From positions 480,001-544,000 of the forward strand of contig CM000431.1 of NCBI GenBank assembly GCA_000165345.1: a DNA stretch of 64,000 nt, given 5' to 3'. Under the pieces are notes generated by a model. The model did no database searches and was not told where the DNA came from. It was given only the letters and a program-made list of their open reading frames with translations. A program made the position numbers and the translations under genes. Positions 20,706-42,639 of this stretch are shown piece after piece (the stretch's first letter is position 1; each line of letters begins with the position of its first letter).

Positions 20706-22412
20706 ATGATGCTTTTGATTTCTTATATTATTTTTATTTATACATGGCTAATACTTTTCAAAAAAGTAGATGGATCCTTTCTAACAGGTAACAATATTGC
20801 TGCAATAACAACAAAACAAGGAACGAAAAGTAATACGGGCAGTATTTTAGGGAACGCTAACAGTATGGATACAATATTAATGACCGCAAAAATACTTTCC
20901 ACAGCTGACACCATTCAAAAGTCAATTCAAAATGAAAACAAAGACCAGAGAGTAAGGGCTAGTGGAGCAGAAGTCGGCCAAGAGAACTTCACCAATTTAA
21001 AAGGCCAGAATTCCACAAGAGAAGACCTTATAGGACCGGGGATTCAGTATTGTAATATTGATAAAGATGGCCTTTGCTGTTTAATGCCCAATTACTGTTC
21101 TAAAGAAGCAACCTGTAAATCTGACATAGTTGGCCAGCAGACTTATATTGACTATTTGAATGCACTCCCAAGATGTCAGTGCCTGCCGGGATATATAGGA
21201 GATGGAAGAACTAAAGGCACAGGCTGTCAGAATGTGAATGAATGTTTGACAGGAGAGGCAAGATGCGAACAGTTATGCACGGATTATTCTCCTGGATATG
21301 CTTGCAGCTGCAATATGGGATACAGGCTCAATACTAAAGACATGAGATCCTGCATAGATATAGATGAATGTATGGAAGGAAGTCATAGCTGTAGCCATAT
21401 TTGTGTTAATACACGAGGAAGTTTTGTTTGCGAATGCCCAAAAGGATATACTCTTGATAAGAACCAACAGGACTGTATAGATATTAATGAGTGCCAAGAA
21501 AATTCTGGGCTTGGACCATGCGAATTTGGTTGCAAGAATCTTCCAGGAGGATTTGAATGCCAATGCCCAAGCGGTTACAAACTTGATAAAAAAACTCAAA
21601 AATGCATTGATATTGATGAATGCAAAGAAGAAAAGAATTTATGCACAGGATTCGGTGAGGTTTGTTTTAATAAAAAAGGTGGATTTGAATGTAAGTGCGG
21701 TATTGGATTTCAATATGATGAGAATGAGAATGCTTGCAAAGATATAAACGAATGTGTACTAAATACTCATGATTGCAAAAAAGATTCGGTTTGTGTGAAT
21801 GAGGATGGTGGCTTCTCTTGCAAATGTTTAGAGAAGGGTTTCGAGTTTAATAAAGAAAAAAGGGCTTGTGAAGATATTGACGAGTGCTCTAACGGCGATT
21901 CTAAGTGTGATCAGTTGTGTTTTAATACCATAGGAGGTTATAAGTGCGGATGCTATAAAGGATTTAGGCTAAATTTAACAGGCCCTGAGGAGAACAGATT
22001 AGACGTACAATCCAGAGTTTGTATAGATATAGATGAGTGCTTAGAATCACCAGAGTTAACAGGTTGTTCTCATGGATGCATAAACAAAAGAGGAGGTTTC
22101 CAGTGTACTTGTCCAAAAGGCTTTCAGCTAGGAATGGATGGAAAAGTTTGTGAAGATATAGATGAATGTAGGATGCCAGAAAATCCATGCGAGAACAATA
22201 GACAATTTCCGTGCTGTTTAAATACTCTCGGAGGATTCACATGCGTAGAACAAATAATCTCTGGAGATTTATTTAAAAGACATGAGTGCCCTAAAGCTGA
22301 TGGAGATAGCATTAAAAGAGAACCTAAAACTGGAAATGTAAACAATAGCAGTGGCATATTTAAATGGTTCAGATCAAATACAGATACAGTAAATAGATTG
22401 AAAACAAAATAG
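20706..22412 (+). CDS. Secreted protein with about 9-10 tandem calcium-binding EGF (cbEGF) domains
   Basis: Signal peptide MMLLISYIIFIYTWLILF. Repeated 'D(I/V)(D/N)EC...C.N..GS/GF.C.C..G(Y/F)' modules, for example DIDECMEGSHSCSHICVNTRGSFVCECPKGY. No C-terminal TM helix. Confidence 0.8.
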   Translation: MMLLISYIIFIYTWLILFKKVDGSFLTGNNIAAITTKQGTKSNTGSILGNANSMDTILMTAKILSTADTIQKSIQNENKDQRVRASGAEVGQENFTNLKGQNSTREDLIGPGIQYCNIDKDGLCCLMPNYCSKEATCKSDIVGQQTYIDYLNALPRCQCLPGYIGDGRTKGTGCQNVNECLTGEARCEQLCTDYSPGYACSCNMGYRLNTKDMRSCIDIDECMEGSHSCSHICVNTRGSFVCECPKGYTLDKNQQDCIDINECQENSGLGPCEFGCKNLPGGFECQCPSGYKLDKKTQKCIDIDECKEEKNLCTGFGEVCFNKKGGFECKCGIGFQYDENENACKDINECVLNTHDCKKDSVCVNEDGGFSCKCLEKGFEFNKEKRACEDIDECSNGDSKCDQLCFNTIGGYKCGCYKGFRLNLTGPEENRLDVQSRVCIDIDECLESPELTGCSHGCINKRGGFQCTCPKGFQLGMDGKVCEDIDECRMPENPCENNRQFPCCLNTLGGFTCVEQIISGDLFKRHECPKADGDSIKREPKTGNVNNSSGIFKWFRSNTDTVNRLKTK

Positions 22413-23565: not shown

Positions 23566-26500
23566 ATGCGGAATTTGATAAAAGATATTGAGTTATATCC
23601 CACAATAGCGGACAACCATTTAAGATTTATAGAGTCGAATATTAAGGGTGAAGCAGGGTTAAAGGAGGTAGAGCAACTATATGAGGGCGCACTTTCTGTG
23701 TGTGGATTGCATCCTGCCGAGGGGCCAGTAATATGGAGTGAGTATCGACGTTTTTTAAGCCATCAAAATGAGGAGAATTTGTCTTTAAGAGTGAGTAAAG
23801 TAAGGGACTTATTTTACAGGCAGATGTCTTTGCCTTTAAGCGGACTTCCAGACCTTCTGGATGAATACAGGATTTGGGAAGAGGAACTTCCAGCCGAAAA
23901 CAGGGAATCTTTTGATGTAGCAAAAGAGCACTATTTGAGAGGCCAGCAGGAGTGGAGTTTAAGAAAACCATTGGAGATGAGAGTTCAGACTGATAATGTG
24001 TCGAACTTACAAGAATTGTTTGATGCCTGGATGCTCTATATTAACTTTGAAAAAGATAGGATGCTTTCAATTGACTATTCAAGTAACGCTGTGCCTCCTC
24101 AAGAGTCTCATTCTGGCTGTAATAACTGTAATTCCTCCATTAAATATAGGTTCGATACTAAAGACTCCGTTATTATGGCTTATAGAAGGGCACTTGATGA
24201 TTTGGGTTCAATAAGAATTGATCTTTGGCTAGAGCTTGCGAATTTTATTTCAACGACCACAAATTGCCCACATTTACTTTCCACAGTATATGCTTCTTCG
24301 CTCCAACATTTTTCTACCAACCCAAAGCTTTGGATGTTTTATCTATCAGCTAAAGCGGAGTCAATAAAAGATATCACATCTCACTTTTGCCAACTTCATC
24401 ATTTTTATGGTCCTGGATGCAAAGCCCGTTCCAGCGCTACTTGGTATCCACAGAATTACCAAATCCTTAAAATTACAAGCTTGAAAGAAATGCTTGAAAT
24501 TGTTCTTGAAAATTATATATCAGAACTTTCTAAGTTCCAAGAAATCTTTTCAAAGTCAAAACAAGACGCTCTCGAGTTATACTTTGTTGTCACCAACTCA
24601 CTCATTGATATTAATAAATCTCTTAAATCCCAGTTAGATACCGCAAAAACATGCAATATTACGTACGAACAGACACATTTGGAGGGAATTAATATATTAG
24701 AATTGGAGGAATTAATATTTAAAAAGTTAGAGAAGTTATATTTGAGAGGAGAGGAGTTATTATTGGGAAGTAATGTCGGATTGGTAGAAGGAAATACTAA
24801 TGGAACAGGGGAAAAGTTTGATATATTGGAGGAGTCAGCTGCATTGTTCTATTCACGGTGGTTTGATTTTGAATTACTGAGATCAGCAAATTTGAAGGAG
24901 GTGATAATTTCTATTTTGGAAAAGTTTCTAGATAAAGATGAGGAACAAGTTATGAACCTGTTGCCTATAATCATTTCAGTCATAAAAGGTAGACTTACAG
25001 CACAAGATCAAATTGAGATAGGGCCAGTTTTGATAGAAAGATTTAGTGGATGTTCTGAGAAAATCAAAGCAAAAGTTTCTAGTGAGTGGGAAAGCACTGA
25101 AAGTTTTGTAAAATACAAAGACAGTAATAAAAGGCAACGTTTGGAAGCATTCGAGGGAGATCCGAATATATTATACTCTCCAAATATTGGAAAGATTTCA
25201 TTGGGAGTTTCCTCTTCAAGCTCAGAGGGAGTGCCAACACAAGAAGTTTCCCAATGTATCTTGCCGCTACCTATTATACATCAAGGGCCAACGATTAATG
25301 CTAGCTCTAGGACTTCAAGCTTAAGATCCATCTCTAAGAACAATGATATTGAAGGTGATTTCGTATGCTTGAGCGAGATCAGACTTAGAAGAGATAAGAG
25401 GAGGAACCGTAGAAACTTTACAGAAAGTGATTATGATACATCCAGCGAGTGCTCTTCTGAAAGTAATAGTATTTCAGCCTTACTTGGGAGTTCAGGAACA
25501 AATGGAGGGAGGCAGTTTCTCAGAAACTTTACTCCTCCCGGGACCCCCAGTTATTCTATACAGAAAGTACCAGGGGTAATTGCACATCAGAACCACAATT
25601 TGAAGTCTCCGCGTTCTCCCACAATCACGTCTGGATTACAGCAAATAACTCTCCATTCAGATCAGCCAGGTTCGAACTCATTTACTCCCAAAGGGAGTCA
25701 TCTAATAAGATCGCCTGGAATTGTTCCTCAAGATCTGGAAGCGAGAACACAGTGTACTTGGGATGGAAGAGAAGCTATTGAACCCTCTATTGCCCCTCCG
25801 ATACCACCTATACCTACTATATCATCTATTTCATCAGTTTCTTCAAATTCATCTCATTCATCTTTTGGTGCTAGGCAGATTGAAAGATCAATTTCACAAT
25901 CCGTTTCTTTAGGAGAGCAGCAAATTTCGATTTCTGAAAGGATAGTTGACGATCAAAATATGCCTCCACCTACATATACTCCCAAAAAAAATAAGTTGGA
26001 TCGTTCAAATGAGAAGGGCGGGATACAACGGCAGTCATCAATAACATCGGTATCTATGGCAATATCTGCCTGTGAGGATTCTGACTTGAATTCAAGCCCA
26101 AAAGAAATTTTGAAAATGGCCAAAGATTTGCCTTCAGATTCTTACGAGGAGGATACTTTGTTCATTAGGTTTCCCCAGGATCAGGATATGGATGAAGAGA
26201 AGCTTAGAGGAATTCTTTTGGAACATTTTCTCATTCAAATTAGCCAGATAAGGATTGTTAGAGATCCCAAGGGAAAACCTAAAGGCTTTGCATATGTTGA
26301 TATTGAGCCGGAAAAGATTGATGAAATAATGAAGAATTCTGAGGAATTAAAAAGGTTAGAGGAAATTGGAATTCAGGTTAAAGCTTCCAATCCACCTAAA
26401 TCTCAGGCTCCGAGAAAGAGTTTATCATCCCGGGGGAATTCAAAGTATAAAAGGCAGACTAGAAGAAAGCAGGCACAAGATCAGCAGGATTCTAGTACGA

Positions 26501-26976
26501 CTATTCTTATTAAGAATATTGATAAAAGTTTGGATGAAAAACAGGTTATTTCTCATTTTCAGGATAGTCTTGGGCTCAAAGTGAAAAATATTAGCATTTC
26601 TAGAGACCAAAGTGGTGCATCTAAAGGATTTGCATTTATGGATTTCTTCGAATCAGGAGATGCTCTTGCTGCTCATATGCTTAATGAATCGAAGTTGGGC
26701 TCAAGCAGCATTACTGTCAGCTCTTCTACTCGTCCTTTAACATTCCCAAAATCAACAAATTCTGATGTTGGCTTAACTGACTCCCTGAATGCCAGATTTG
26801 TTCCTAGAACTAAGAGTAAGCAGAAACTTCCCTCTGGTCGTATAGGAATGAGAGGTAGAGAAAATAAGGTTAACACTTCTACCTTCCACGAGGACTTGGA
26901 GTTGGGAAATCAACATGAAACAGTGAATAAAGCTCCCTCTTTGACAAATGATGATTTCAGAAAACTATTTTTATAG
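23566..26976 (+). CDS. SART3/Prp24-like U4/U6 snRNP recycling factor (N-terminal HAT/TPR-like repeats, long Ser-rich linker, two C-terminal RRMs, C-terminal F..LFL tail)
   Basis: HAT-like helical repeats at the N-terminus (LYEGALSVCGLHPAEGPVIWSEYRRFL...). Two RRM RNP1-like motifs (KGFAYVDIEP, KGFAFMDFFESGDALAAH). The protein ends ...NDDFRKLFL, reminiscent of the Prp24 SNFFL / SART3 LSm-interaction motif. Confidence 0.55.
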   Translation: MRNLIKDIELYPTIADNHLRFIESNIKGEAGLKEVEQLYEGALSVCGLHPAEGPVIWSEYRRFLSHQNEENLSLRVSKVRDLFYRQMSLPLSGLPDLLDEYRIWEEELPAENRESFDVAKEHYLRGQQEWSLRKPLEMRVQTDNVSNLQELFDAWMLYINFEKDRMLSIDYSSNAVPPQESHSGCNNCNSSIKYRFDTKDSVIMAYRRALDDLGSIRIDLWLELANFISTTTNCPHLLSTVYASSLQHFSTNPKLWMFYLSAKAESIKDITSHFCQLHHFYGPGCKARSSATWYPQNYQILKITSLKEMLEIVLENYISELSKFQEIFSKSKQDALELYFVVTNSLIDINKSLKSQLDTAKTCNITYEQTHLEGINILELEELIFKKLEKLYLRGEELLLGSNVGLVEGNTNGTGEKFDILEESAALFYSRWFDFELLRSANLKEVIISILEKFLDKDEEQVMNLLPIIISVIKGRLTAQDQIEIGPVLIERFSGCSEKIKAKVSSEWESTESFVKYKDSNKRQRLEAFEGDPNILYSPNIGKISLGVSSSSSEGVPTQEVSQCILPLPIIHQGPTINASSRTSSLRSISKNNDIEGDFVCLSEIRLRRDKRRNRRNFTESDYDTSSECSSESNSISALLGSSGTNGGRQFLRNFTPPGTPSYSIQKVPGVIAHQNHNLKSPRSPTITSGLQQITLHSDQPGSNSFTPKGSHLIRSPGIVPQDLEARTQCTWDGREAIEPSIAPPIPPIPTISSISSVSSNSSHSSFGARQIERSISQSVSLGEQQISISERIVDDQNMPPPTYTPKKNKLDRSNEKGGIQRQSSITSVSMAISACEDSDLNSSPKEILKMAKDLPSDSYEEDTLFIRFPQDQDMDEEKLRGILLEHFLIQISQIRIVRDPKGKPKGFAYVDIEPEKIDEIMKNSEELKRLEEIGIQVKASNPPKSQAPRKSLSSRGNSKYKRQTRRKQAQDQQDSSTTILIKNIDKSLDEKQVISHFQDSLGLKVKNISISRDQSGASKGFAFMDFFESGDALAAHMLNESKLGSSSITVSSSTRPLTFPKSTNSDVGLTDSLNARFVPRTKSKQKLPSGRIGMRGRENKVNTSTFHEDLELGNQHETVNKAPSLTNDDFRKLFL

Positions 26977-27105: not shown

Positions 27106-29310
27106 TCATTTATACTGAAACGTGACGTCTATACAGACATTTTTGAAATTTGATGATCTAACATCAATTTCTTTCTTACGCTTGAGAGAAATTGAAAGAA
27201 AGCAGTCTCGGATCAACCATGTCTTGGAGGAAGTATCCCACTCTAGAAAGAATGTCCAAAGGTTCGAGTGGCTAGAGGTATGTATAAGAGCAGGATGAAG
27301 CCAGAAATGGGCCAATGCAACAGAAGAATTTGAGAAGCTGCGTCTAGAGGACCCCCATTCATTAATCTTTTTAATTGGGAATTCAACAATGTCTTTATAT
27401 GGTGAGTTCACTGCTGTAATTACATGATTAGAAAACTCCTTCTTGCGCTCCGGGTTTGAGAAATCTATGAGAGAGATGCTTCGGAGCATATGTGCGTTTT
27501 CTTCCTCTTCTTCAATTGGTTTAAGGCTTTCAATGGGATCATAAAGCAAACAGCTCATTTCTGTGGTTTCTGAGTCAACTTCACTTCTTTGATGCATAGA
27601 TTTTGGAGAAAGTGAATGTTTCTGGAGATGCCTCTGAGGAGATTCGTATCCAAAAATCTTTATAACAAACTCTCTCTCAATCCAAGGCTTTGGGCGGTCT
27701 TGAGCAGTTCTAGTGACTATATCTGGCGAAAATGGTTTAGTTTTAAGACTTGAAACAAGTTGTTCAATCTTAGATCTAGCGGAATAGATAAGTTGGCTTT
27801 GATCTTGACCAAAATAGCTCAAAGCTTGCTTATTAGATTCAGATTCTAGCAAAAAAAACTGATAACCTTCTCCTTTTGAATATAAAGATTGGCTTAAATG
27901 GGTACCTGCATGACGTGGATTCCAATCAAAGTTTGTGGTTAAGCCGCTATAAAGGTACTCTGCATCTCGATTATACTCAGAATGGAGGCAGATTTTCCAT
28001 TCAAAGATATCACTTATTTCTCTTTCTTTATTATTGACAACAATGGAGACTGGGAAAACATTGATAGGATGGATTAAACATTGTGGAAGATATATGCATT
28101 GGTCTCTAAGCAGTTCTGAAATCTTCCAATGCCTCTTTTCGCACTTTTGATTGACTCTTCTCAGTTCAGAATTGCAAATATTCCAATAGTATCCAGAACG
28201 GAAACCTCTTTGGAGATCTTCCCAAAAGAAGTTTGAGCCTCGTTTAATAACTGATTCTGGGAAGGTGTGTTTAAGAAGGAAGTTGAAGTAATGAACAAAT
28301 CTGATTTGGGATGGGTTCTTTATTGTTTTGACGCAACCTGGAAGACTGAGATCGGTTCTTCTATTAGAGTAGTACTCAAGAGCTTCTTCTAAGCTTGAAC
28401 AGAGTCTCGAATATAGTAACCAAGCAACCACGACGATTCCAGTTCTACCTTTACCACCTTTACAATGGATTGCCACTACGTTCTTACGATCGCTTACCAA
28501 GTAATTGAGAACAAGGAAGCAAATGATAAACAGAGATCCAAGAGTAGGAACTTGATGATCTGGAAATGGACAAGAAACAATACTATGGAAATAACTAAGA
28601 GAGTAGTGTTCTCGCTCATTACAGAGATTAATAATCATATGGTTGCGGGGATACTTTGTCATGAAAAAAGTTGAAACCTCTTCAATTGGATTTCTGTAAA
28701 TTGCTTCAATATTAATTGCTGGAAGTCCCATAGCGATCACTCTATCAGTAATATAAACCAAATCCAAACAATATTCTTCATTCGTATAGAAGCGTTTATT
28801 CTGACCAACTTGTTTTCGAAGAAAGACAGAAAGACGTTTCCAGTTGGCTGCATAGCCAAGAATTTTACCAAATCCAACAATATCTGTGCTAAGGCCCGTA
28901 ATACTCAGCATTCCAATGACTAAGTTCAGAAACAGCTCCACAGAATTCCTCATAATAATAGTCTCATCCTTCAATTTACCTGAAACCCCATATTTTGCCC
29001 TTAGAAGTTTACAAATATATACTAAAATAACCAATGAGTCATAAATACAGTAAACTGAGATGATTATTCCAATAGGAAAGTATATTTCTTGACAAAACCT
29101 ATTTAAAGCTGAGTTTTGTGTTTTGTTCATAAAAATAGCCAGAAAAATTGCCATATGCAAAATACATAAAAAAATAATAATCCAGTGGACTATTGGAGAA
29201 CTTGCAGCCCTAGATGCTCTATTCAGAAATGTCCCCACCCTTGAACTTGTACCATGGTCATTCACCTTGTTTTGCTCCAGTATGCAAAGCAAGTCTACGC
29301 TATTTCTCAT
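27106..29310 (-). CDS. PTEN-family phosphoinositide/protein phosphatase with an N-terminal multi-helix transmembrane module (TPTE/VSP-like arrangement); the track ORF start at 29367 is a GTG, and the first ATG is at 29310
   Basis: The phosphatase core aligns to PTEN/TPTE: NKRFYTNEEYCLDLVYITDRVIAMGLPA...IYRNPIEEV...NHMIINLCNER...VVAIHCKGGKGRTG (P-loop HCKxGKGRTG with the catalytic Cys intact). It is preceded by three strongly hydrophobic segments: IVHWIIIFLCILHMAIFLAIFM, IYFPIGIIISVYCIYDSLVILVYICKLL and LNLVIGMLSITGLSTDIVGFGKILGYAA. Confidence 0.75.
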   Translation of the reverse strand: MRNSVDLLCILEQNKVNDHGTSSRVGTFLNRASRAASSPIVHWIIIFLCILHMAIFLAIFMNKTQNSALNRFCQEIYFPIGIIISVYCIYDSLVILVYICKLLRAKYGVSGKLKDETIIMRNSVELFLNLVIGMLSITGLSTDIVGFGKILGYAANWKRLSVFLRKQVGQNKRFYTNEEYCLDLVYITDRVIAMGLPAINIEAIYRNPIEEVSTFFMTKYPRNHMIINLCNEREHYSLSYFHSIVSCPFPDHQVPTLGSLFIICFLVLNYLVSDRKNVVAIHCKGGKGRTGIVVVAWLLYSRLCSSLEEALEYYSNRRTDLSLPGCVKTIKNPSQIRFVHYFNFLLKHTFPESVIKRGSNFFWEDLQRGFRSGYYWNICNSELRRVNQKCEKRHWKISELLRDQCIYLPQCLIHPINVFPVSIVVNNKEREISDIFEWKICLHSEYNRDAEYLYSGLTTNFDWNPRHAGTHLSQSLYSKGEGYQFFLLESESNKQALSYFGQDQSQLIYSARSKIEQLVSSLKTKPFSPDIVTRTAQDRPKPWIEREFVIKIFGYESPQRHLQKHSLSPKSMHQRSEVDSETTEMSCLLYDPIESLKPIEEEEENAHMLRSISLIDFSNPERKKEFSNHVITAVNSPYKDIVEFPIKKINEWGSSRRSFSNSSVALAHFWLHPALIHTSSHSNLWTFFLEWDTSSKTWLIRDCFLSISLKRKKEIDVRSSNFKNVCIDVTFQYK

Positions 29311-30204
29311 TTTATCTTTGCTCTGCTCTGCTTCCTTAAGGCCAGATATCCAGGTTTTCGTATTCACTTGGCCTCATTATACGCTCTCAAGCATTCCAAT
29401 TTTCTTCCAACCCTAAGCCCTATAATTTTTTTCAAATTAACACGTCTATTGAGATTTTTCCAAAAATATATTATATTCCTATATTTGACGGAGTGCCGCC
29501 TAACATATTTTTTTTTATGCATGCGAAGTAATTATATACCGGTAAAAAATATTTGTGGGGAAAGTAAAAAAAATTCTGCATTTCATATTTATACGTCACT
29601 GCTATTATTTGACGTATTAAAAAAAGGAATGAAAACAGATTTTACTTTAAGAGCATTAATTTCCTGCAGATTTAATATATTCTAAGTGTGGATATCTCAA
29701 TATACTTCATAAGAATAATTTTCTTAAAAAAAAAATATTGCGAAAAATAAATAATTGCAAAATTTGCATTAGTAATGCATTTAGAGGCTAGACCTAAAGG
29801 TTTTATTTTTTTAAAGTACGCGTTAGCCATTCTTAAGACAGCATTTTGAGAGGAGCTATAGACGAGGTTATATCTATGCTTCTGCGAATGCTTAATGCTA
29901 CATTATGTAATATTACATAAGCCAGAGTGGTCTCAAATTTTAATTATTTTGTACAGCAATTTTAGGCGCCATACTTTACATAGCTATTATGAAATTATTG
30001 GTCCTCATGAAAAAATATGGTCAAATGGGCGGGAATTTCAGAATGTGATATAATGCTGAAGTGGGGAAATCATTAATAAAAGTTAAATTTTTTCTGTTTT
30101 TGCTGTTAGGAGTTAAATTTGAACATCGTTTTCATTCCAGTTAAATTGGGGAGCAAGTCAAGTTTAATTAGCAGGAAGTCGTTAGGGCTCACAGATAAAG
30201 AGTG

Positions 30205-31080
30205 ATGACAGGTAACAATCCATATGGAGGCTACGACTTGGTGATAAGGGAGTTTGATCCTTCTGATAGCGATGGCGTAAGGCGCGTGTGTTTCAAACAC
30301 TTTCGCTCCTTGACATTCCCGTCAGTTTTCTTTTACTTGAGTCAGCATTTGGCGGATATGATAGCCTTGTTGGTGATTGGAAAAGTGTTTATGGACTTTA
30401 AGCAGCTGATTTCAATGCTGGTTTTATTTTGTGTCTATTTGACAGGTAGATCCATATGGGAGGTTGAAACTTATATTAGGAACTGTTGTACAGATTTGAG
30501 AAATGTGCATGAACTTTACATGATTTCTCCTGGATATCATTTTTGGGTTGCAGAGCTTGTCAAGAGGAGAAACTCCATTAGAAAGAGAAGGAGCATGGTT
30601 TTGGGGAGCGGGGGTGGAAGTAATTCGAGAGCAGAGGGCTTAGAACAAAATGATCATGCTTCAAAAAGTATTGAGTGTGAAGATACTCCAAGTAATAGGA
30701 TGGAGGGAGGCGAGTCCATCTTAGTCGGATGCGTCGGCCTAGCCCCATATAGAGATGATCCAAAGATAGGCCGTCTTGTTAGGCTAGTAGTTGGAGTTGA
30801 AAGCAGAAGAATGAGAATAGGAACAAGGTTGTTAGCTCAGATGGAAAATTTTGCAAAGGATTATGGATATAAGGAAATCCACTTATACACGAACAATTTG
30901 AGCACTTCACCAATTAAATTTATTAGCCAACATGGATACCAACTTGTTCAGGTAATTAGTAGAGGATTAATGAGAGGTGACTTATTGCTTTGGAGAAAGT
31001 CTTTTGAAAAAAGCAGCTCTGATAATTCCTACTTGAATAATGAAAGGAACAGTATTGGAGAGAGAGTTATATTAGATTAA
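30205..31080 (+). CDS. Membrane-associated GNAT-family N-acetyltransferase (NAT8/camello-like); the track ORF begins at a GTG at 30202
   Basis: Acetyl-CoA-binding GNAT core: GCVGLAPYRDDPKIGRLVRLVVGVESRRMRIGTRLLAQMENFAKDYGYKEIHLYT. Hydrophobic N-terminal segments: FPSVFFYLSQHLADMIALLVIGKVF and LISMLVLFCVYL. Confidence 0.6.
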   Translation: MTGNNPYGGYDLVIREFDPSDSDGVRRVCFKHFRSLTFPSVFFYLSQHLADMIALLVIGKVFMDFKQLISMLVLFCVYLTGRSIWEVETYIRNCCTDLRNVHELYMISPGYHFWVAELVKRRNSIRKRRSMVLGSGGGSNSRAEGLEQNDHASKSIECEDTPSNRMEGGESILVGCVGLAPYRDDPKIGRLVRLVVGVESRRMRIGTRLLAQMENFAKDYGYKEIHLYTNNLSTSPIKFISQHGYQLVQVISRGLMRGDLLLWRKSFEKSSSDNSYLNNERNSIGERVILD

Positions 31081-31113: not shown

Positions 31114-32487
31114 TTAAGAAATGGAGTTCAATAGAGACTCAACATTCAGGTTCAAATTAGACTCGTTTGGTATCATGCAACTACTGTATTTGGTTTCTGT
31201 GATAAATTCAATACATTTAAAGAATATATAGTCAGAGCTGTCTAGCTTACAGGAAAATTTGTCCTGAATGCTGACATTCGATAATTCAAAAATATTCTCA
31301 GATTTGCTGTAGTTATTGCCACAAATGCTATTAAGACATCTGGATGATATGATATTCAAAAGATTAAGTATATTTTCTGTTTCAAACTTGACTTTGACGA
31401 AGACAATTCCAAATTCATTCAATAGTATTTTCTGGTCATTATCTAGAGATAGATTTTCTGTAAGCGTTCCGGAACATCTTACTTTTCCAATTAAAACTTT
31501 GTCCTTAGTATATAATTCATTTTTTTCATTTATATTCAATTTGAAGGTAGTATTATCATCCATTTCTTTGTCTCTGCAATCTTTAAATGACTTATTCTGT
31601 TTATCCCTCCATATAAACCAGTTTTTCTGAGAAGCAGTGCAATACTCTTTGCATTCGGGATACGCATCTTCGTAATCTTGTTCGACATCATACACAGAAT
31701 CTTTTCTTACGAACACCAAACAATCAAAATCTGATAAAGGGCCATGCATTCTGTCATTAACTCCGTAAATATGTAACAAACTATCTTTAGACAAAGGAAA
31801 ATATTTTCCTAACTGTATTCTAATATTTGGAATAAGTTTAAGATTCGAGTCCAATACCATGGAAACATCCATGCTTTCCGCAGTTCTATTAGTGACTCCT
31901 GATTCCTCAATCCTTGAAGATAAGAAATGCAATCTACATTCGGTTGTAGAAATACATATATTCAAATTGTTCCAAACGATCAAATCATTGCAATAAAAGG
32001 TATTCTGATCTTGATTATATATTCCATCAATGATAGTCAATCCAGTATGAGCAAATGGGACATTCTTTACGGTAAAAATTCTCCATCCATCTTGGTTTCT
32101 CAGTTCACAATATCCATTTCCTTGAATTAACATGCTCCTACTTCCTGTACAAATTGGAAGTAAAAGCCAATCTTGAGGGTTTTCCTGTATGCTTTTGTAC
32201 CCTTCGGAAAGTTTAGACAACCATGTATACTCTATTAGCTCTTTAGACCAAACTTTTGAAAGCTTCCAATCTTTGATAAACTTTGAGTGAACTTTTTCAC
32301 TTTTGCCTTTGGGTTTAAAATACTCTTTGTCTTCTGTCCTCTGAAATTTGAGAAACTTTTGTCGCCTTTCCGTTCTTAGCTTCTCCAGCATTCCCCTAAG
32401 CTTCTTATCTATAGAGGACATATCAGAATGTTTTTCCTTTATAAACCCATGATTGAGTTTGTAGTAGCTATTATAACTAGAATTCAT
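31114..32487 (-). CDS. SNUPN: Snurportin-1 homologue (m3G-cap snRNP import adaptor); the track ORF start at 32526 is a TTG, and the first ATG is at 32487
   Basis: N-terminal basic IBB-like stretch (LRTERRQKFLKFQRTED). The cap-binding domain aligns with snurportin and the capping-enzyme nucleotidyltransferase fold: WLLLPICTGSRSMLIQGNGYCELRNQDGWRIF...TIIDGIYNQDQNTFYCNDLIVWNN...CRLHFLSSRIEE (human SPN1 'WMLVPCPVGKRCLVVA...[22 protein letters not shown]'). Confidence 0.7.
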   Translation of the reverse strand: MNSSYNSYYKLNHGFIKEKHSDMSSIDKKLRGMLEKLRTERRQKFLKFQRTEDKEYFKPKGKSEKVHSKFIKDWKLSKVWSKELIEYTWLSKLSEGYKSIQENPQDWLLLPICTGSRSMLIQGNGYCELRNQDGWRIFTVKNVPFAHTGLTIIDGIYNQDQNTFYCNDLIVWNNLNICISTTECRLHFLSSRIEESGVTNRTAESMDVSMVLDSNLKLIPNIRIQLGKYFPLSKDSLLHIYGVNDRMHGPLSDFDCLVFVRKDSVYDVEQDYEDAYPECKEYCTASQKNWFIWRDKQNKSFKDCRDKEMDDNTTFKLNINEKNELYTKDKVLIGKVRCSGTLTENLSLDNDQKILLNEFGIVFVKVKFETENILNLLNIISSRCLNSICGNNYSKSENIFELSNVSIQDKFSCKLDSSDYIFFKCIEFITETKYSSCMIPNESNLNLNVESLLNSIS

Positions 32488-32816
32488 CCTAAATAGAAAT
32501 AGATTAACTCCCTCTACTAGAGGCAAAGATTTGAAAATCCAAAACTTCGAACAATTTCATTTAATTCGAAACTTATCAGAGCTGTAATCATTTTTTATTA
32601 GTTTATTTTCTGCCTTTAGACATTTGGCGCCAGGCTGAATAGATGCATGTAAATTCCTAGTTTTTATATTTAGAAAAGTTAAATAATATAAAAATTGAAA
32701 GAGAGAGGAATTAAGGAGTTTATTGGTGATATAAAATTATGGAAGAGTAATTAATGCATTTAATATGGTAGATTTATGAATATTCTAAAAAGGAATTTAA
32801 AGTTTAGAGACGTAAA

Positions 32817-39807: not shown

Positions 39808-42639
39808 ATGACGTCTTGTTCGGAAAAAATTAAGGCCTCTGAATCTGGCACCAAGGTTTCAGCTGCTAGCCATGAATCCCTAGCTAAGGATGAGGTATTT
39901 CAAGCTCAGATAAAATCAATTGACCAGGCAAAGAGTTCTCTATTAGAACTTGACCCAGAGATTGTAGAGAATTCTACAAACCAGACCGAAAATGGGTCAG
40001 GTAGCGTAGTTATTACACCAACAGGAGTCAGCAAAACCAACTCCATTGATGATATCACAACTTGTACAACAAGTAGTGACATTTCAACCCCTATTGAGCT
40101 CAGTCTGACGGCAAAGAGACCGAGAGCCGAGACGTCTTTCTCTGATAAGCTCGATTCCGATACTTTGGAACCAACAATAAAGGTGCAGAGTCTAGATCCT
40201 TCAATTGGAATTGTATCCAAAAGCGAAGCCGAAATCCGGAGCTCATTTATTCAGGATCATGGCCCAGCTTCTACTGTGGTATCATCTCCAACTCCTTGCA
40301 ACAGTATTGTGTTTAAGTGTATTGATACCTCAGAAAGCGGAGTTGATATCAATAATCGCACAGAGTCAAACTCTACAGAGGTAATTCCCACATCAGAAGC
40401 GTCGAAGTCTACTACTGCATCTGCATCGCCCTTGAACCAAAGCCAGAGTTGTAAAGATGAATTGAATTCTGGTATTTGCATGGGAGCCAAACAGCCCGCC
40501 TTTCTATCTTCTAAGCAACTCTTTGATGAGCTAGTTCAACTAGCTGCAGTTTCGCCAACTACAGGAGCTAGTGGCATTGCTTTGCTGAATCCACAGCAGC
40601 TCGCATCCTTAGATAATGGAGTTCTCCAACAATCCTTGCAAAATTTTGGTTTGTTAATGGGCACAGGTCTGGGAATGCCATCATTGGGAGCAACAGGAAA
40701 CACTACCCCAATTAAGGTACAGTCCCCGTCAATTTCTGCAAGCCAGCTTATGGTGGGATCAATGGGGCCATCTTCAGCGGAAGATTTACAACAATCAACA
40801 TCTGCAAGCACTACAGCCTCTGCCTCAACCGCTACATCATCGGCAGCCTCTCCACTAACTTCTCCAATCAATCTTTCATCTGCGTCTGCAACACATGGTT
40901 CCGCTGGTCAAATTCCAGGGATGGTTGCTCAAAATCAGTTCATCTCCCAACTAATGGCAAACCCGCTTTTCCAATCTCAGGCGATAGCCAGCCAAAGCTC
41001 CCAAAATTTGAATAGGATGGTTTCAGCAGCCTTTGGAGCCGGATCTCCACAAACTACTCCCGCCTCTAACACATTCGGCTGGCCATCAGGAGGTTCAACT
41101 ACTCCCCAAGGGTTTTGCCCAACTGGTACCCAACCAGGAATGGCAAATTTTGCTGCTCTTCTTGCTGCAGCAAATTCTCAGTTGCACGGTCACAACGCGT
41201 TTCCTGTGTCATTTCCCACACCAGTAAATAGAAGTATTAGTAACGGGTCGAATCCAATTCTAATGCCCATGCAATCTGCAACTCCCTCTGATGGATCTGC
41301 TTTCGAAGGAGCCCAGACATCCACCACTGCAAGCACTGCGTCTCCCAGCGAGGCCAGTACATACCCTTCTATAGGCCAGCAAAATGATCCCTTACTAAGG
41401 CTGGGCGCAGGACTTCCCCACAACTCATCTGGAACTCCCTGTATTCCGCCATTCTGGAACACAAACCCTGCCTTGCTAGCATCTGCTGCTTCCTTAATAG
41501 GCTCTGGAGATATATCCCAAACCATGGCGTTATTAAATGTTAATCCCTTAGGTTTACAACCTTTTGTCCAGGCGCAAACCCCACAGCAAGCCAATACTCA
41601 CAACTCAAATTCTGAAGAGGAAGGTGCCAACAGAGCCCAACAAAACTGCCTTTCTCTCTTGGCATCTTTGCAGCAACCCAGCTTTGACTTCTCTTCACTT
41701 TCTACTTCAAGCCCAGCAACTCTTGCCGCTCTAGCCAGTGCCGCAACCGCTGCAACTAATGCACAACTTTCTTCCGCTGCCCAGACACAACCAGATGCTG
41801 AAAACCATGCTTCCAAGCCCGTAGCTAAGGCTTCTGGTAGTGGGAGGGCTTCCCATGGATCAGGCTCCAGAGCCTTGAATGCGAGCTCTTCAGTTACAGC
41901 GGCTGCTGCTGCTCTTGACCATCTAGATGTAGACTGGGATAGTGTTGGACTTAGAGAGGCAGAACTAGCTGCAATGGAAATTTGCAAGACTGCAAGCACT
42001 CTTTTCGACACCACTGATGGGACCACCCCAGTCCCTAGCTCCCCAGCTGCTGTAGGAGAAGCAGTGTTAACTGCAGCACAGCTCACTATCTCCGCTAGGG
42101 CAATGCTAAAATTTGTGAAAGGTCTGACGCCCACACAACTTGGCATCAATTGGCACGCATGCACTCAAAGATTTTGCGTAACTTACACAACTAGGGATGA
42201 ACAGAATCCCCGAAGTTGGACTTTAGGTGCATACTCAAACGGAAAACTACATTACAAGTACTTTGGGCCAAGATCCTGGACAGTTATGGGTCTAAAAGAG
42301 GCCTTAAGAAAAGCCTTCAAGGCTAGAACTTCTCTGCTTCTCGGGCAGGGAATTATTGAAGAGCCAGAGGATACAGGGTTAAGCAAGGAGGAGTTAACAT
42401 ACCACGCAAGGCAATTACTACAACAACTCAGGGACTCACTCGGAGTCAAGAAGGGTAATGTTCACAAGGGCCTCTACATTTCTTGGCACCCCAAAACAAG
42501 GAGATTTGTTGTTGCTTTAAAATCATGTGAAAGTGGTAAAACTATCTACAAGTACTTTTCTCCAAAGGAGAGGTCAATAAAGGGGATAAAAACTGCTCTT
42601 CTTGATGCACACCAAATGGTTGTAGCTGCTTGCCAATAA
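39808..42639 (+). CDS. ApiAP2-type transcription factor candidate: 943 aa, long Ser/Thr/Ala/Gln low-complexity regions and two tandem C-terminal AP2-like domains
   Basis: Two roughly 60-aa repeats of the form [GI]xWHxxTxRFxVxx...GKxxYKYF(G/S)P...(L/I)KxAL: GINWHACTQRFCVTYTTRDEQNPRSWTLGAYSNGKLHYKYFGPRSWTVMGLKEALRKAF and GLYISWHPKTRRFVVALKSCESGKTIYKYFSPKERSIKGIKTALLDAH. This resembles the coccidian/cryptosporidial AP2 variant 'GVxWDxxxxxWxAxW..NGKRxxKxFSVxKyG.eeAKxLA'. A 1.5-kb upstream leader and GC-richer low-complexity body are typical of ApiAP2 genes. Confidence 0.55.
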   Translation: MTSCSEKIKASESGTKVSAASHESLAKDEVFQAQIKSIDQAKSSLLELDPEIVENSTNQTENGSGSVVITPTGVSKTNSIDDITTCTTSSDISTPIELSLTAKRPRAETSFSDKLDSDTLEPTIKVQSLDPSIGIVSKSEAEIRSSFIQDHGPASTVVSSPTPCNSIVFKCIDTSESGVDINNRTESNSTEVIPTSEASKSTTASASPLNQSQSCKDELNSGICMGAKQPAFLSSKQLFDELVQLAAVSPTTGASGIALLNPQQLASLDNGVLQQSLQNFGLLMGTGLGMPSLGATGNTTPIKVQSPSISASQLMVGSMGPSSAEDLQQSTSASTTASASTATSSAASPLTSPINLSSASATHGSAGQIPGMVAQNQFISQLMANPLFQSQAIASQSSQNLNRMVSAAFGAGSPQTTPASNTFGWPSGGSTTPQGFCPTGTQPGMANFAALLAAANSQLHGHNAFPVSFPTPVNRSISNGSNPILMPMQSATPSDGSAFEGAQTSTTASTASPSEASTYPSIGQQNDPLLRLGAGLPHNSSGTPCIPPFWNTNPALLASAASLIGSGDISQTMALLNVNPLGLQPFVQAQTPQQANTHNSNSEEEGANRAQQNCLSLLASLQQPSFDFSSLSTSSPATLAALASAATAATNAQLSSAAQTQPDAENHASKPVAKASGSGRASHGSGSRALNASSSVTAAAAALDHLDVDWDSVGLREAELAAMEICKTASTLFDTTDGTTPVPSSPAAVGEAVLTAAQLTISARAMLKFVKGLTPTQLGINWHACTQRFCVTYTTRDEQNPRSWTLGAYSNGKLHYKYFGPRSWTVMGLKEALRKAFKARTSLLLGQGIIEEPEDTGLSKEELTYHARQLLQQLRDSLGVKKGNVHKGLYISWHPKTRRFVVALKSCESGKTIYKYFSPKERSIKGIKTALLDAHQMVVAACQ

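Follow-up and report, generated by a model that had tools for sequence, protein, structure and literature searches.

In the 64-kb window of Cryptosporidium DNA analysed here (GenBank assembly GCA_000165345.1, contig CM000431.1, positions 480,001 to 544,000; positions below are counted from the first letter of this whole stretch), a gene on the reverse strand encodes a protein of 734 residues in which a multi-helix membrane module, a basic linker, a phosphatase domain of the PTEN fold and a C2 domain follow one another, i.e. the architecture of the voltage-sensing phosphatases (VSPs), such as TPTE and Ci-VSP. The textbook example of direct control of an enzyme by a voltage sensor, VSPs have so far been examined almost exclusively in animals. 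The protein is most likely (at a probability of roughly 0.7) a divergent VSP with a degenerate sensor, in which voltage gating is probably weak or absent, and which would act as an active, membrane-anchored phosphoinositide phosphatase. This reading is founded on a catalytic domain that groups with those of VSPs and not with those of PTENs, on a linker in register with that between the S4 helix and the phosphatase of VSPs, on a protist protein that bridges the membrane module and recognizable voltage sensors, and on an S4 helix with a single invariant lysine. A membrane-tethered, TPTE/VSP-like arrangement had been proposed from the letters of this DNA and its list of open reading frames (ORFs), in what is called below the sequence-only reading; the architecture stands, but the wording in terms of a voltage sensor was too strong, since direct searches for a sensor were negative and the arginine ladder of S4 has been lost.

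The phosphatase domain

The PTEN/TPTE-like nature of the catalytic core, which the sequence-only reading had called unambiguous, is borne out. The cited motifs (HCKGGKGRTG, NKRFY, LDLVYITDRVIAMG, YRNP and NLC) are all found, and the similarity is far above chance, the best matches in a search of solved structures being Ci-VSP (expectation value, E, 9.4e-44) and TPTE2 (2e-43), followed by PTEN (about 3e-35) and auxilin (1e-18). Among the best 120 database matches, the named proteins from outside Cryptosporidium are labelled VSP or TPTE2 or bear no family name, none being labelled PTEN; the majority of the 120 have Pfam Ion_trans, and choanoflagellate, cryptophyte and gregarine proteins are included. 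No named coccidian or haemosporidian sequence occurs among these best 120 listed, a statement that applies to them and not to weaker matches. The P-loop reads HCKGGKGRTG in all eight Cryptosporidium sequences (8/8) and in 105 VSP domains, as against HCKAGKGRTG in 211 of 213 PTEN domains.

A neighbour-joining (NJ) tree was built from 169 columns of an alignment of 99 catalytic domains (those of 64 diverse PTENs and 23 VSPs, with eight Cryptosporidium and four gregarine-like sequences; a search seeded with human PTEN had given vertebrate PTENs only, and a search with a protist PTEN domain added diversity). VSPs, Cryptosporidium and gregarine-like sequences form a clade without any of the 64 PTENs in 98 of 100 bootstraps, and in 100 of 100 the apicomplexan group has a VSP as its nearest neighbour from outside. 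Judged by these comparisons, the catalytic domain is of the VSP type and not of the PTEN type, which is also how the test of PTEN against TPTE/VSP clades suggested by the sequence-only reading came out. Within the clade, Cryptosporidium stands with the gregarine-like and other protist VSPs, separate from those of choanoflagellates and animals. Horizontal acquisition of the gene from an animal host was considered and rejected, because the neighbours in the tree are protist, not metazoan, VSPs, and the tree argues for vertical descent rather than for capture from the host.

In an alignment of 32 sequences, Cys283, Arg289 and Asp251-His252 are invariant, the general-acid Asp251 sitting within PFPDHQVP, and the His, Cys, Gly, Lys, Arg and Thr residues of the P-loop are intact and invariant as well; the enzyme is presumably an active phosphatase. 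As to its substrate, specificity for the 3- or the 5-site is set in such enzymes by the P-loop (Ala126 versus Gly) and by the TI or gating loop (Thr-Ile versus Glu-Thr) (Leitner et al. 2018, PMC6182344). The gating loop of the Cryptosporidium protein has the length of that of Ci-VSP, with 13 residues between RT and (P/A)SQ, and in a gap-free alignment with the latter Lys-Asn (Arg-Asn in C. muris) occupies the positions of ET in VSPs and TI in PTEN, both the Glu-Thr pair of VSPs and the Thr-Ile pair of PTEN being absent. The glycine of the P-loop suggests a VSP-like capacity to act as a 5-phosphatase, e.g. on phosphatidylinositol 4,5-bisphosphate (PI(4,5)P2), which the Lys-Asn loop makes uncertain.

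Linker and C2 domain

The spaced basic residues that the sequence-only reading had noticed at the site of the S4-phosphatase linker of TPTE and Ci-VSP lie where it had placed them. Residues 167-368 of the protein align with residues 167-367 of the 520-residue TPTE2 chain, so that the linker falls in register with the one between S4 and the phosphatase in the latter, and likewise in Ci-VSP. R165, N171, K172, R173 and Y175 are invariant or nearly so among the 32 sequences, four K/R residues fall within the 16 residues preceding NKR, as in other VSPs, and in the AlphaFold2 (AF2) models the S4 helix runs unbroken into the linker helix. On this alignment, the segment is the counterpart of the phosphoinositide-binding linker of VSPs and PTEN.

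The region that follows the phosphatase contains HFWLHPALIH, for which the VSP equivalent is YFWFHTSFIE, and a final strand, CIDVTFQYK. Pfam, run on the whole protein, did not report a PTEN C2 domain, and profile comparison gave weak, correctly placed matches (HFWLHPALIH against YFWFHTSFIE; E 0.02-0.04). The full-length AF2 model (predicted local distance difference test score, pLDDT, 69.8; predicted template-modelling score, pTM, 0.73) has beta-rich segments at residues 374-553 and 665-733, with a disordered stretch between them. When this model was compared by Foldseek with the phosphatase and C2 domains of PTEN, TM-scores of 0.76-0.80, normalised to the target (about 310 residues), were obtained over about 580 columns (best target 7jul, 0.80, E 6e-15), and a TM-score of 0.73 was obtained with Ci-VSP. 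Because the phosphatase domain alone could not reach such TM-scores, a C2 domain is predicted to be present, swollen by insertions.

The N-terminal membrane module

The hydropathy profile shows peaks at three places, residues 52, 91 and 136, the third being a stretch of 38 residues that AF2 splits into two helices. The three peaks explain both the three transmembrane domains of the public annotation and the three long hydrophobic helices of the sequence-only reading; the peaks are real, but the helices predicted are four, with an amphipathic helix in addition. Indeed, the AF2 model of residues 1-175, whose alignment consisted of Cryptosporidium and gregarine-like sequences only and held no canonical VSPs, shows the amphipathic helix and four long helices (pLDDT 75.5, pTM 0.69), and the full-length model repeats the same N-terminal helices. 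Structure prediction, named by the sequence-only reading as a check, gives in this way a bundle rather than a single anchor, with a C2 domain behind the phosphatase. With four helices, the enzyme would lie on the side of the membrane on which the N-terminus lies, an arrangement shared with VSPs.

The link with the voltage-sensor domain (VSD) passes through a bridging, apicomplexan-like protein, P0021, which is 1166 residues long, lies on a single 4-kb Logan contig and clusters with Cryptosporidium in the tree. Its N-terminal module scores 30.7 bits (2.3e-7) with Pfam Ion_trans, above the gathering score of 25, and gives 2.2e-6 in comparison with the VSP sensor profile. When the linker is left out, the Cryptosporidium profile aligns with the N-terminus of P0021 at 9.5e-4 over 114 columns, and C. 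muris alone matches the module at 1.5e-4 over 102 columns; when 40 local shuffles that left the hydrophobic segments in place were used as a control, the C. muris score was 30.0, against 12.1±2.4 (maximum 18.9) for the shuffles. C. muris also matches the VSP profile itself at E 0.006-0.02, in register through S1, S2 (YCIYD against yF.lE) and S3 (FDILDGII against dVlD.vV). A full-length BLAST alignment pairs the protein colinearly with P0021 from S0 through the phosphatase, and the spacing between the acidic residue of S3 and a conserved Tyr of S4, 29 residues, is common to C. parvum, C. muris and P0021. Because of this bridging protein, the conserved order of the helices and the linker in register, the module is probably a strongly diverged S1-S4 domain, the homology to the VSD being transitive, via P0021.

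At the level of individual positions, the S0-like helix aligns weakly with the pre-S1 helix of VSPs, and S1 has His52 at the position of a conserved Asp of VSPs in the multiple alignment. In S2, the Y, C, Y and D of YCxYD are invariant in eight Cryptosporidium species; Asp91, invariant across the genus, aligns with the acidic residue of VSP S2 (yF.lE/D), the Cys is aligned to the aromatic residue of the y-F motif of VSPs, and Ile or Val stands at the position of a conserved Arg. The acidic residue of S3 is retained as Glu125 (Asp in C. muris), which aligns with the second Asp of FDILDGII in C. muris and with the Asp of NVLDLSI in P0021, and the loop between S3 and S4 is only about four residues long.

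Counted in a 24-residue S4 window, basic residues (K/R) number one or two in Cryptosporidium, with no R/K-x-x-R/K pair, as against 4-6 in 92 of the 95 other VSPs compared; no arginine ladder is present, and Lys149 is the sole basic residue of S4 that is invariant in the genus. A lone lysine in S4 makes a steep dependence of gating on voltage unlikely. A group of protist VSP-like proteins (P0016, P0024, P0045, P0090 and P0091) likewise has only one or two basic residues in S4, and several of them still match Pfam Ion_trans; S4 charge may have been lost more than once in VSP relatives outside animals.

Weighing the alternatives

Several observations weigh against a voltage-sensor ancestry of the module and the reading built on it. 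No direct search identifies the module as a voltage sensor. In Pfam scans, Ion_trans was absent both from the whole protein and from the isolated N-terminal modules of four proteins, Cryptosporidium and gregarine-like, the only matches being insignificant ones to unrelated membrane families, so that the comparison with voltage-sensor models that the sequence-only reading had suggested came back negative; compared by hhalign with 45 VSP sensor domains, the Cryptosporidium N-terminal profile gave an E of 0.22, which is not significant, and one of 0.097 when P0021 was added to the VSP target, a global alignment being insignificant too; an exhaustive hidden Markov model search of 1.84 billion representative proteins with a profile of Cryptosporidium N-termini alone retrieved Cryptosporidium only; and Foldseek found no match below E 0.28 for the N-terminal model in the PDB. 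The score of the Cryptosporidium profile against P0021 is modest in the shuffle control (26.4, against 13.3±3.4 for the shuffles, one of the 40 reaching the maximum of 26.0). Furthermore, the tree is distance-based only, the alignment behind the full-length AF2 model contained VSPs, so that its C2 and sensor regions are not independent predictions, and no experimental report on activity, substrate, localisation or voltage dependence was found in the literature.

If these negative searches were taken at face value, the N-terminal module would be an unrelated, lineage-specific multi-pass anchor, added or substituted, which merely forms a generic four-helix bundle. This is improbable, as the catalytic domain falls within the VSP clade, whose members have the sensor at exactly that position, the linker keeps the register of the S4 linker, and the Pfam-significant sensor of P0021 is colinear with the Cryptosporidium module through S1-S4 with an equal 29-residue spacing; replacement by a module of the same helix number, length and topology would also be less economical than divergence. 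Somewhat less unlikely, but still well behind a degenerate sensor, is a working VSP with a small gating charge and a shallow voltage dependence, in which Lys149 would move, perhaps along with K158/R159 at the S4-linker junction. The entire VSP architecture is retained with the linker in register, the module has been kept through the evolution of the genus (C. muris is matched by the Cryptosporidium N-terminal profile at 2.3e-32), and the invariance of Lys149 and of Asp91 in S2, together with the acid kept in S3, fits a retained network of charge pairs; what speaks against a working sensor is the one basic residue of S4 without R/K-x-x-R/K periodicity, where 92 of 95 VSPs have 4-6, along with the Cys at the aromatic position of the S2 y-F motif, the Ile/Val at the S2 Arg position and the S3-S4 loop of about four residues.

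That the protein is not a lipid phosphatase at all, but a catalytically inactive or protein-directed phosphatase-like scaffold, is very improbable. The Lys-Asn in the gating/TI loop, where lipid specificity is otherwise tuned by ET or TI, and the heavy remodelling of the C2 domain by insertions would be in keeping with such a role; the P-loop residues and the general-acid Asp-His are, however, intact and invariant, the basic lipid-binding linker is kept, and the fold of phosphatase and C2 domains is predicted with a TM-score of 0.80 to PTEN.

In a VSP whose sensor has degenerated, the four N-terminal helices would derive from the S1-S4 of a voltage sensor and would anchor the protein with both ends in the cytosol. 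S4 would continue directly into the basic linker, which probably binds acidic phosphoinositides and would hold the PTEN-fold active site with Cys283 and the C2 domain close to that membrane, for the enzyme to take a phosphate off a phosphoinositide headgroup there. Should gating have been lost, the module would hold the protein in place and orient it, perhaps answering another input. A bolder extension, which should be held tentatively and at somewhat under even odds, is that Cryptosporidium and gregarines keep an ancient protist VSP in which the sensor has turned into a charge-poor anchor or a sensor of some other signal, and which is possibly their only PTEN-family lipid phosphatase. If so, the enzyme would control PI(4,5)P2 or 3-phosphoinositides at one particular membrane of the parasite, and its coupling would operate without gating charges.

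Comparison with known systems

With the VSPs (Ci-VSP, zebrafish VSP, human TPTE and TPTE2) the protein shares the order of S0, four helices, basic linker, phosphatase and C2 domain, as well as the P-loop HCKGGKGRTG, the gating-loop length of Ci-VSP and a catalytic domain of the VSP clade. It differs from them in having one Lys in S4 where VSPs have 4-6 Arg/Lys, in a sensor that escapes Pfam and profile searches, in the S1 His for Asp, the S2 Cys at the y-F aromatic and the gating-loop Lys-Asn for Glu-Thr, and in a C-terminal region of about 380 residues, some 105 of which form the disordered insertion, as against about 160-210 in the Ci-VSP ortholog P0099 and human PTEN. With PTEN it has in common the phosphatase and C2 fold, the catalytic Cys, Arg and Asp, and a basic lipid-binding motif ending in NKR-x-Y. 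PTEN, however, is soluble, has Ala126 and Thr-Ile, and carries that motif at its extreme N-terminus, whereas the Cryptosporidium protein, outside the PTEN clade, has Gly and Lys-Asn at the corresponding positions and about 155 residues of membrane module before the motif.

The closest relatives in the tree are the protist VSP-like P0021, P0017 from the gregarine Lankesteria, P0012 and P0014, and also the P0016/P0024/P0045/P0090/P0091 group. Like the Cryptosporidium protein, they have either a short S3-S4 loop or few charges in S4, together with long insertions towards the C-terminus and a C2 motif of the FxWLH type; they are without functional annotation and come mostly from metagenomic or transcriptomic sources. 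P0021 differs in that it passes the Pfam Ion_trans cut-off, which the Cryptosporidium module does not. The S1-S4 domain of TRP channels offers another parallel, one of shape, both being four-helix bundles without an arginine ladder, and TRPV is among the top, non-significant, Foldseek matches; charge-poor voltage-sensor-like domains of the TRP type serve as structural or ligand-sensing modules. The TRP domain is, however, attached to a pore and not to an enzyme.

Other domain combinations were encountered among the sequences compared. P0010, from a cryptophyte transcriptome (1269 residues), has a voltage-sensor domain and two PTEN-fold domains in one protein, the first with an altered P-loop (HCKSGRDRTG) and the second with one of the PTEN type (HCKAGKGRTG), and P0011 combines a PH domain with two PTEN-type domains.

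The statement of the sequence-only reading that membrane-tethered PTEN paralogues are best known from metazoa holds with the qualification that VSPs outside animals are already acknowledged for choanoflagellates (PMC12223298). As to the Apicomplexa, a 2023 review of their phosphoinositide metabolism, focused on Plasmodium and Toxoplasma, mentions PTEN-C2 only as an accessory domain of formin 2 and has no PTEN- or VSP-type enzyme in its inventory (PMC10543664). With the gene described here, the known lipid-signalling enzymes of the Apicomplexa gain a predicted phosphoinositide phosphatase of the PTEN family, a candidate lineage-specific regulator in Cryptosporidium. A VSP architecture that keeps the coupling linker without the S4 ladder amounts, moreover, to a natural evolutionary experiment on the roles of the module other than voltage sensing. 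The practical value is moderate, the gene being annotated and its family likeness on record.

Gene model and annotation

The ORF at 27106..29367 on the minus strand is present as listed, with 753 residues counted from a GTG, and its first ATG, 19 codons in as the sequence-only reading had remarked, is codon 20, at position 29310, by direct reading of the sequence. The 734-residue product from this ATG is identical from end to end with C. parvum EAK89108.1 / QOY42538.1, the former annotated as "membrane bound phosphatase with 3 transmembrane domains", and most Cryptosporidium orthologs begin with MRN(S/G)VDLL, i.e. at the same start. A bacterial-style GTG start was rejected on these grounds, and the listed GTG is an artefact of ORF listing under the bacterial code, because the ATG product matches EAK89108.1 and the orthologs share its start. 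Residue numbers in this text are those of the 734-residue protein; those of the listed ORF are higher by 19. The features are collected in table 1.

Table 1. Features of the membrane-bound phosphatase gene and its product, in window positions
Feature	Position	Strand	Residues	Remarks
Complete coding sequence	27106..29310	-		734 codons and stop (27106-27108), without intron
19 codons between listed GTG and real ATG	29311..29367	-		most likely 5′ untranslated region
Amphipathic S0-like helix before S1	29203..29241	-	24-36	RVGTFLNRASRAA; predicted in both AF2 models
S1-like transmembrane helix	29128..29196	-	39-61	AF2, pLDDT about 90; hydropathy peak at 52
S2-like helix	28987..29112	-	67-108	AF2; YCxYD motif
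S3-like helix	28900..28968	-	115-137	AF2; alignments
S4-like helix	28846..28887	-	142-155	TDIVGFGKILGYAA; AF2; single invariant Lys149
Basic S4-to-phosphatase linker	28786..28845	-	156-175	NWKRLSVFLRKQVGQNKRFY
PTEN-fold phosphatase domain	28255..28785	-	176-352	
Catalytic P-loop	28438..28467	-	282-291	HCKGGKGRTG; Cys283, Arg289; Gly at the PTEN Ala126 position
Gating/TI loop	28300..28362	-	317-337	RRTDLSLPGCVKTIKNPSQIR; determinants after PMC6182344
C2 domain	27109..28203	-	370-734	predicted; large lineage-specific insertions
Disordered insertion within the C2 region	27325..27642	-	557-662	acidic, Ser-rich; pLDDT 25-36

Orthologs are found in nine Cryptosporidium entries and span 96-99% of the protein length. 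The 90% cluster of EAK89108.1 also includes those of C. hominis, C. meleagridis and C. tyzzeri, and more distant ones belong to C. ubiquitum, C. canis, C. felis and C. muris, with two further entries. Among the C. hominis TU502 entries, one bears the name "transmembrane phosphatase with tensin …y isoform C"; the ortholog of C. felis is called "TPTE2-like". The gene is real, free of introns and already annotated, and its TPTE likeness is already in public annotation. Literature searches that paired Cryptosporidium with voltage-sensing phosphatases, TPTE or the name in the annotation turned up no study of the gene. What is new is the interpretation and not the object, the degeneration of the sensor not being described in the papers that could be searched.

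Upstream of the gene, a short ORF of 13 codons (ATGAGGCCAAGTGAATACGAAAACCTGGATATCTGGCCTTAA) lies at 29337..29377 on the minus strand, in another frame than the phosphatase gene; it begins 67 bases upstream of the real ATG, stops 27 bases before it and might influence translation of the phosphatase.

Genomic surroundings

The window is compact, with about 35% G+C and long ORFs back to back, and an Rfam scan of the whole 64 kb gave no family at its gathering score. The divergent neighbour of the phosphatase gene (30202..31080, plus strand) encodes a GNAT acetyltransferase domain (residues 168-246) after hydrophobic segments, and its listed GTG start is probably an artefact of the ORF listing as well. 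The flanking genes for a HAT-repeat and RRM protein with a Suf/Prp39-like N-terminus (23566..26976, plus strand; RRM at residues 980-1049) and for a protein with a snurportin-like m3G-cap-binding domain (31114..32526, minus strand) point to RNA processing and have no apparent link to the phosphatase.

Further away, a 943-residue ORF without a Pfam match (39808..42639, plus strand) lies in the one part of the window that is markedly rich in G+C, the fraction being 0.476 at 40001-42000 and about 0.35 elsewhere. On the other side, a 568-residue ORF (20706..22412, plus strand) contains calcium-binding EGF domains (EGF_CA, 1e-57, in seven stretches, plus cEGF), an animal-style extracellular adhesive architecture in the genome of a parasite.

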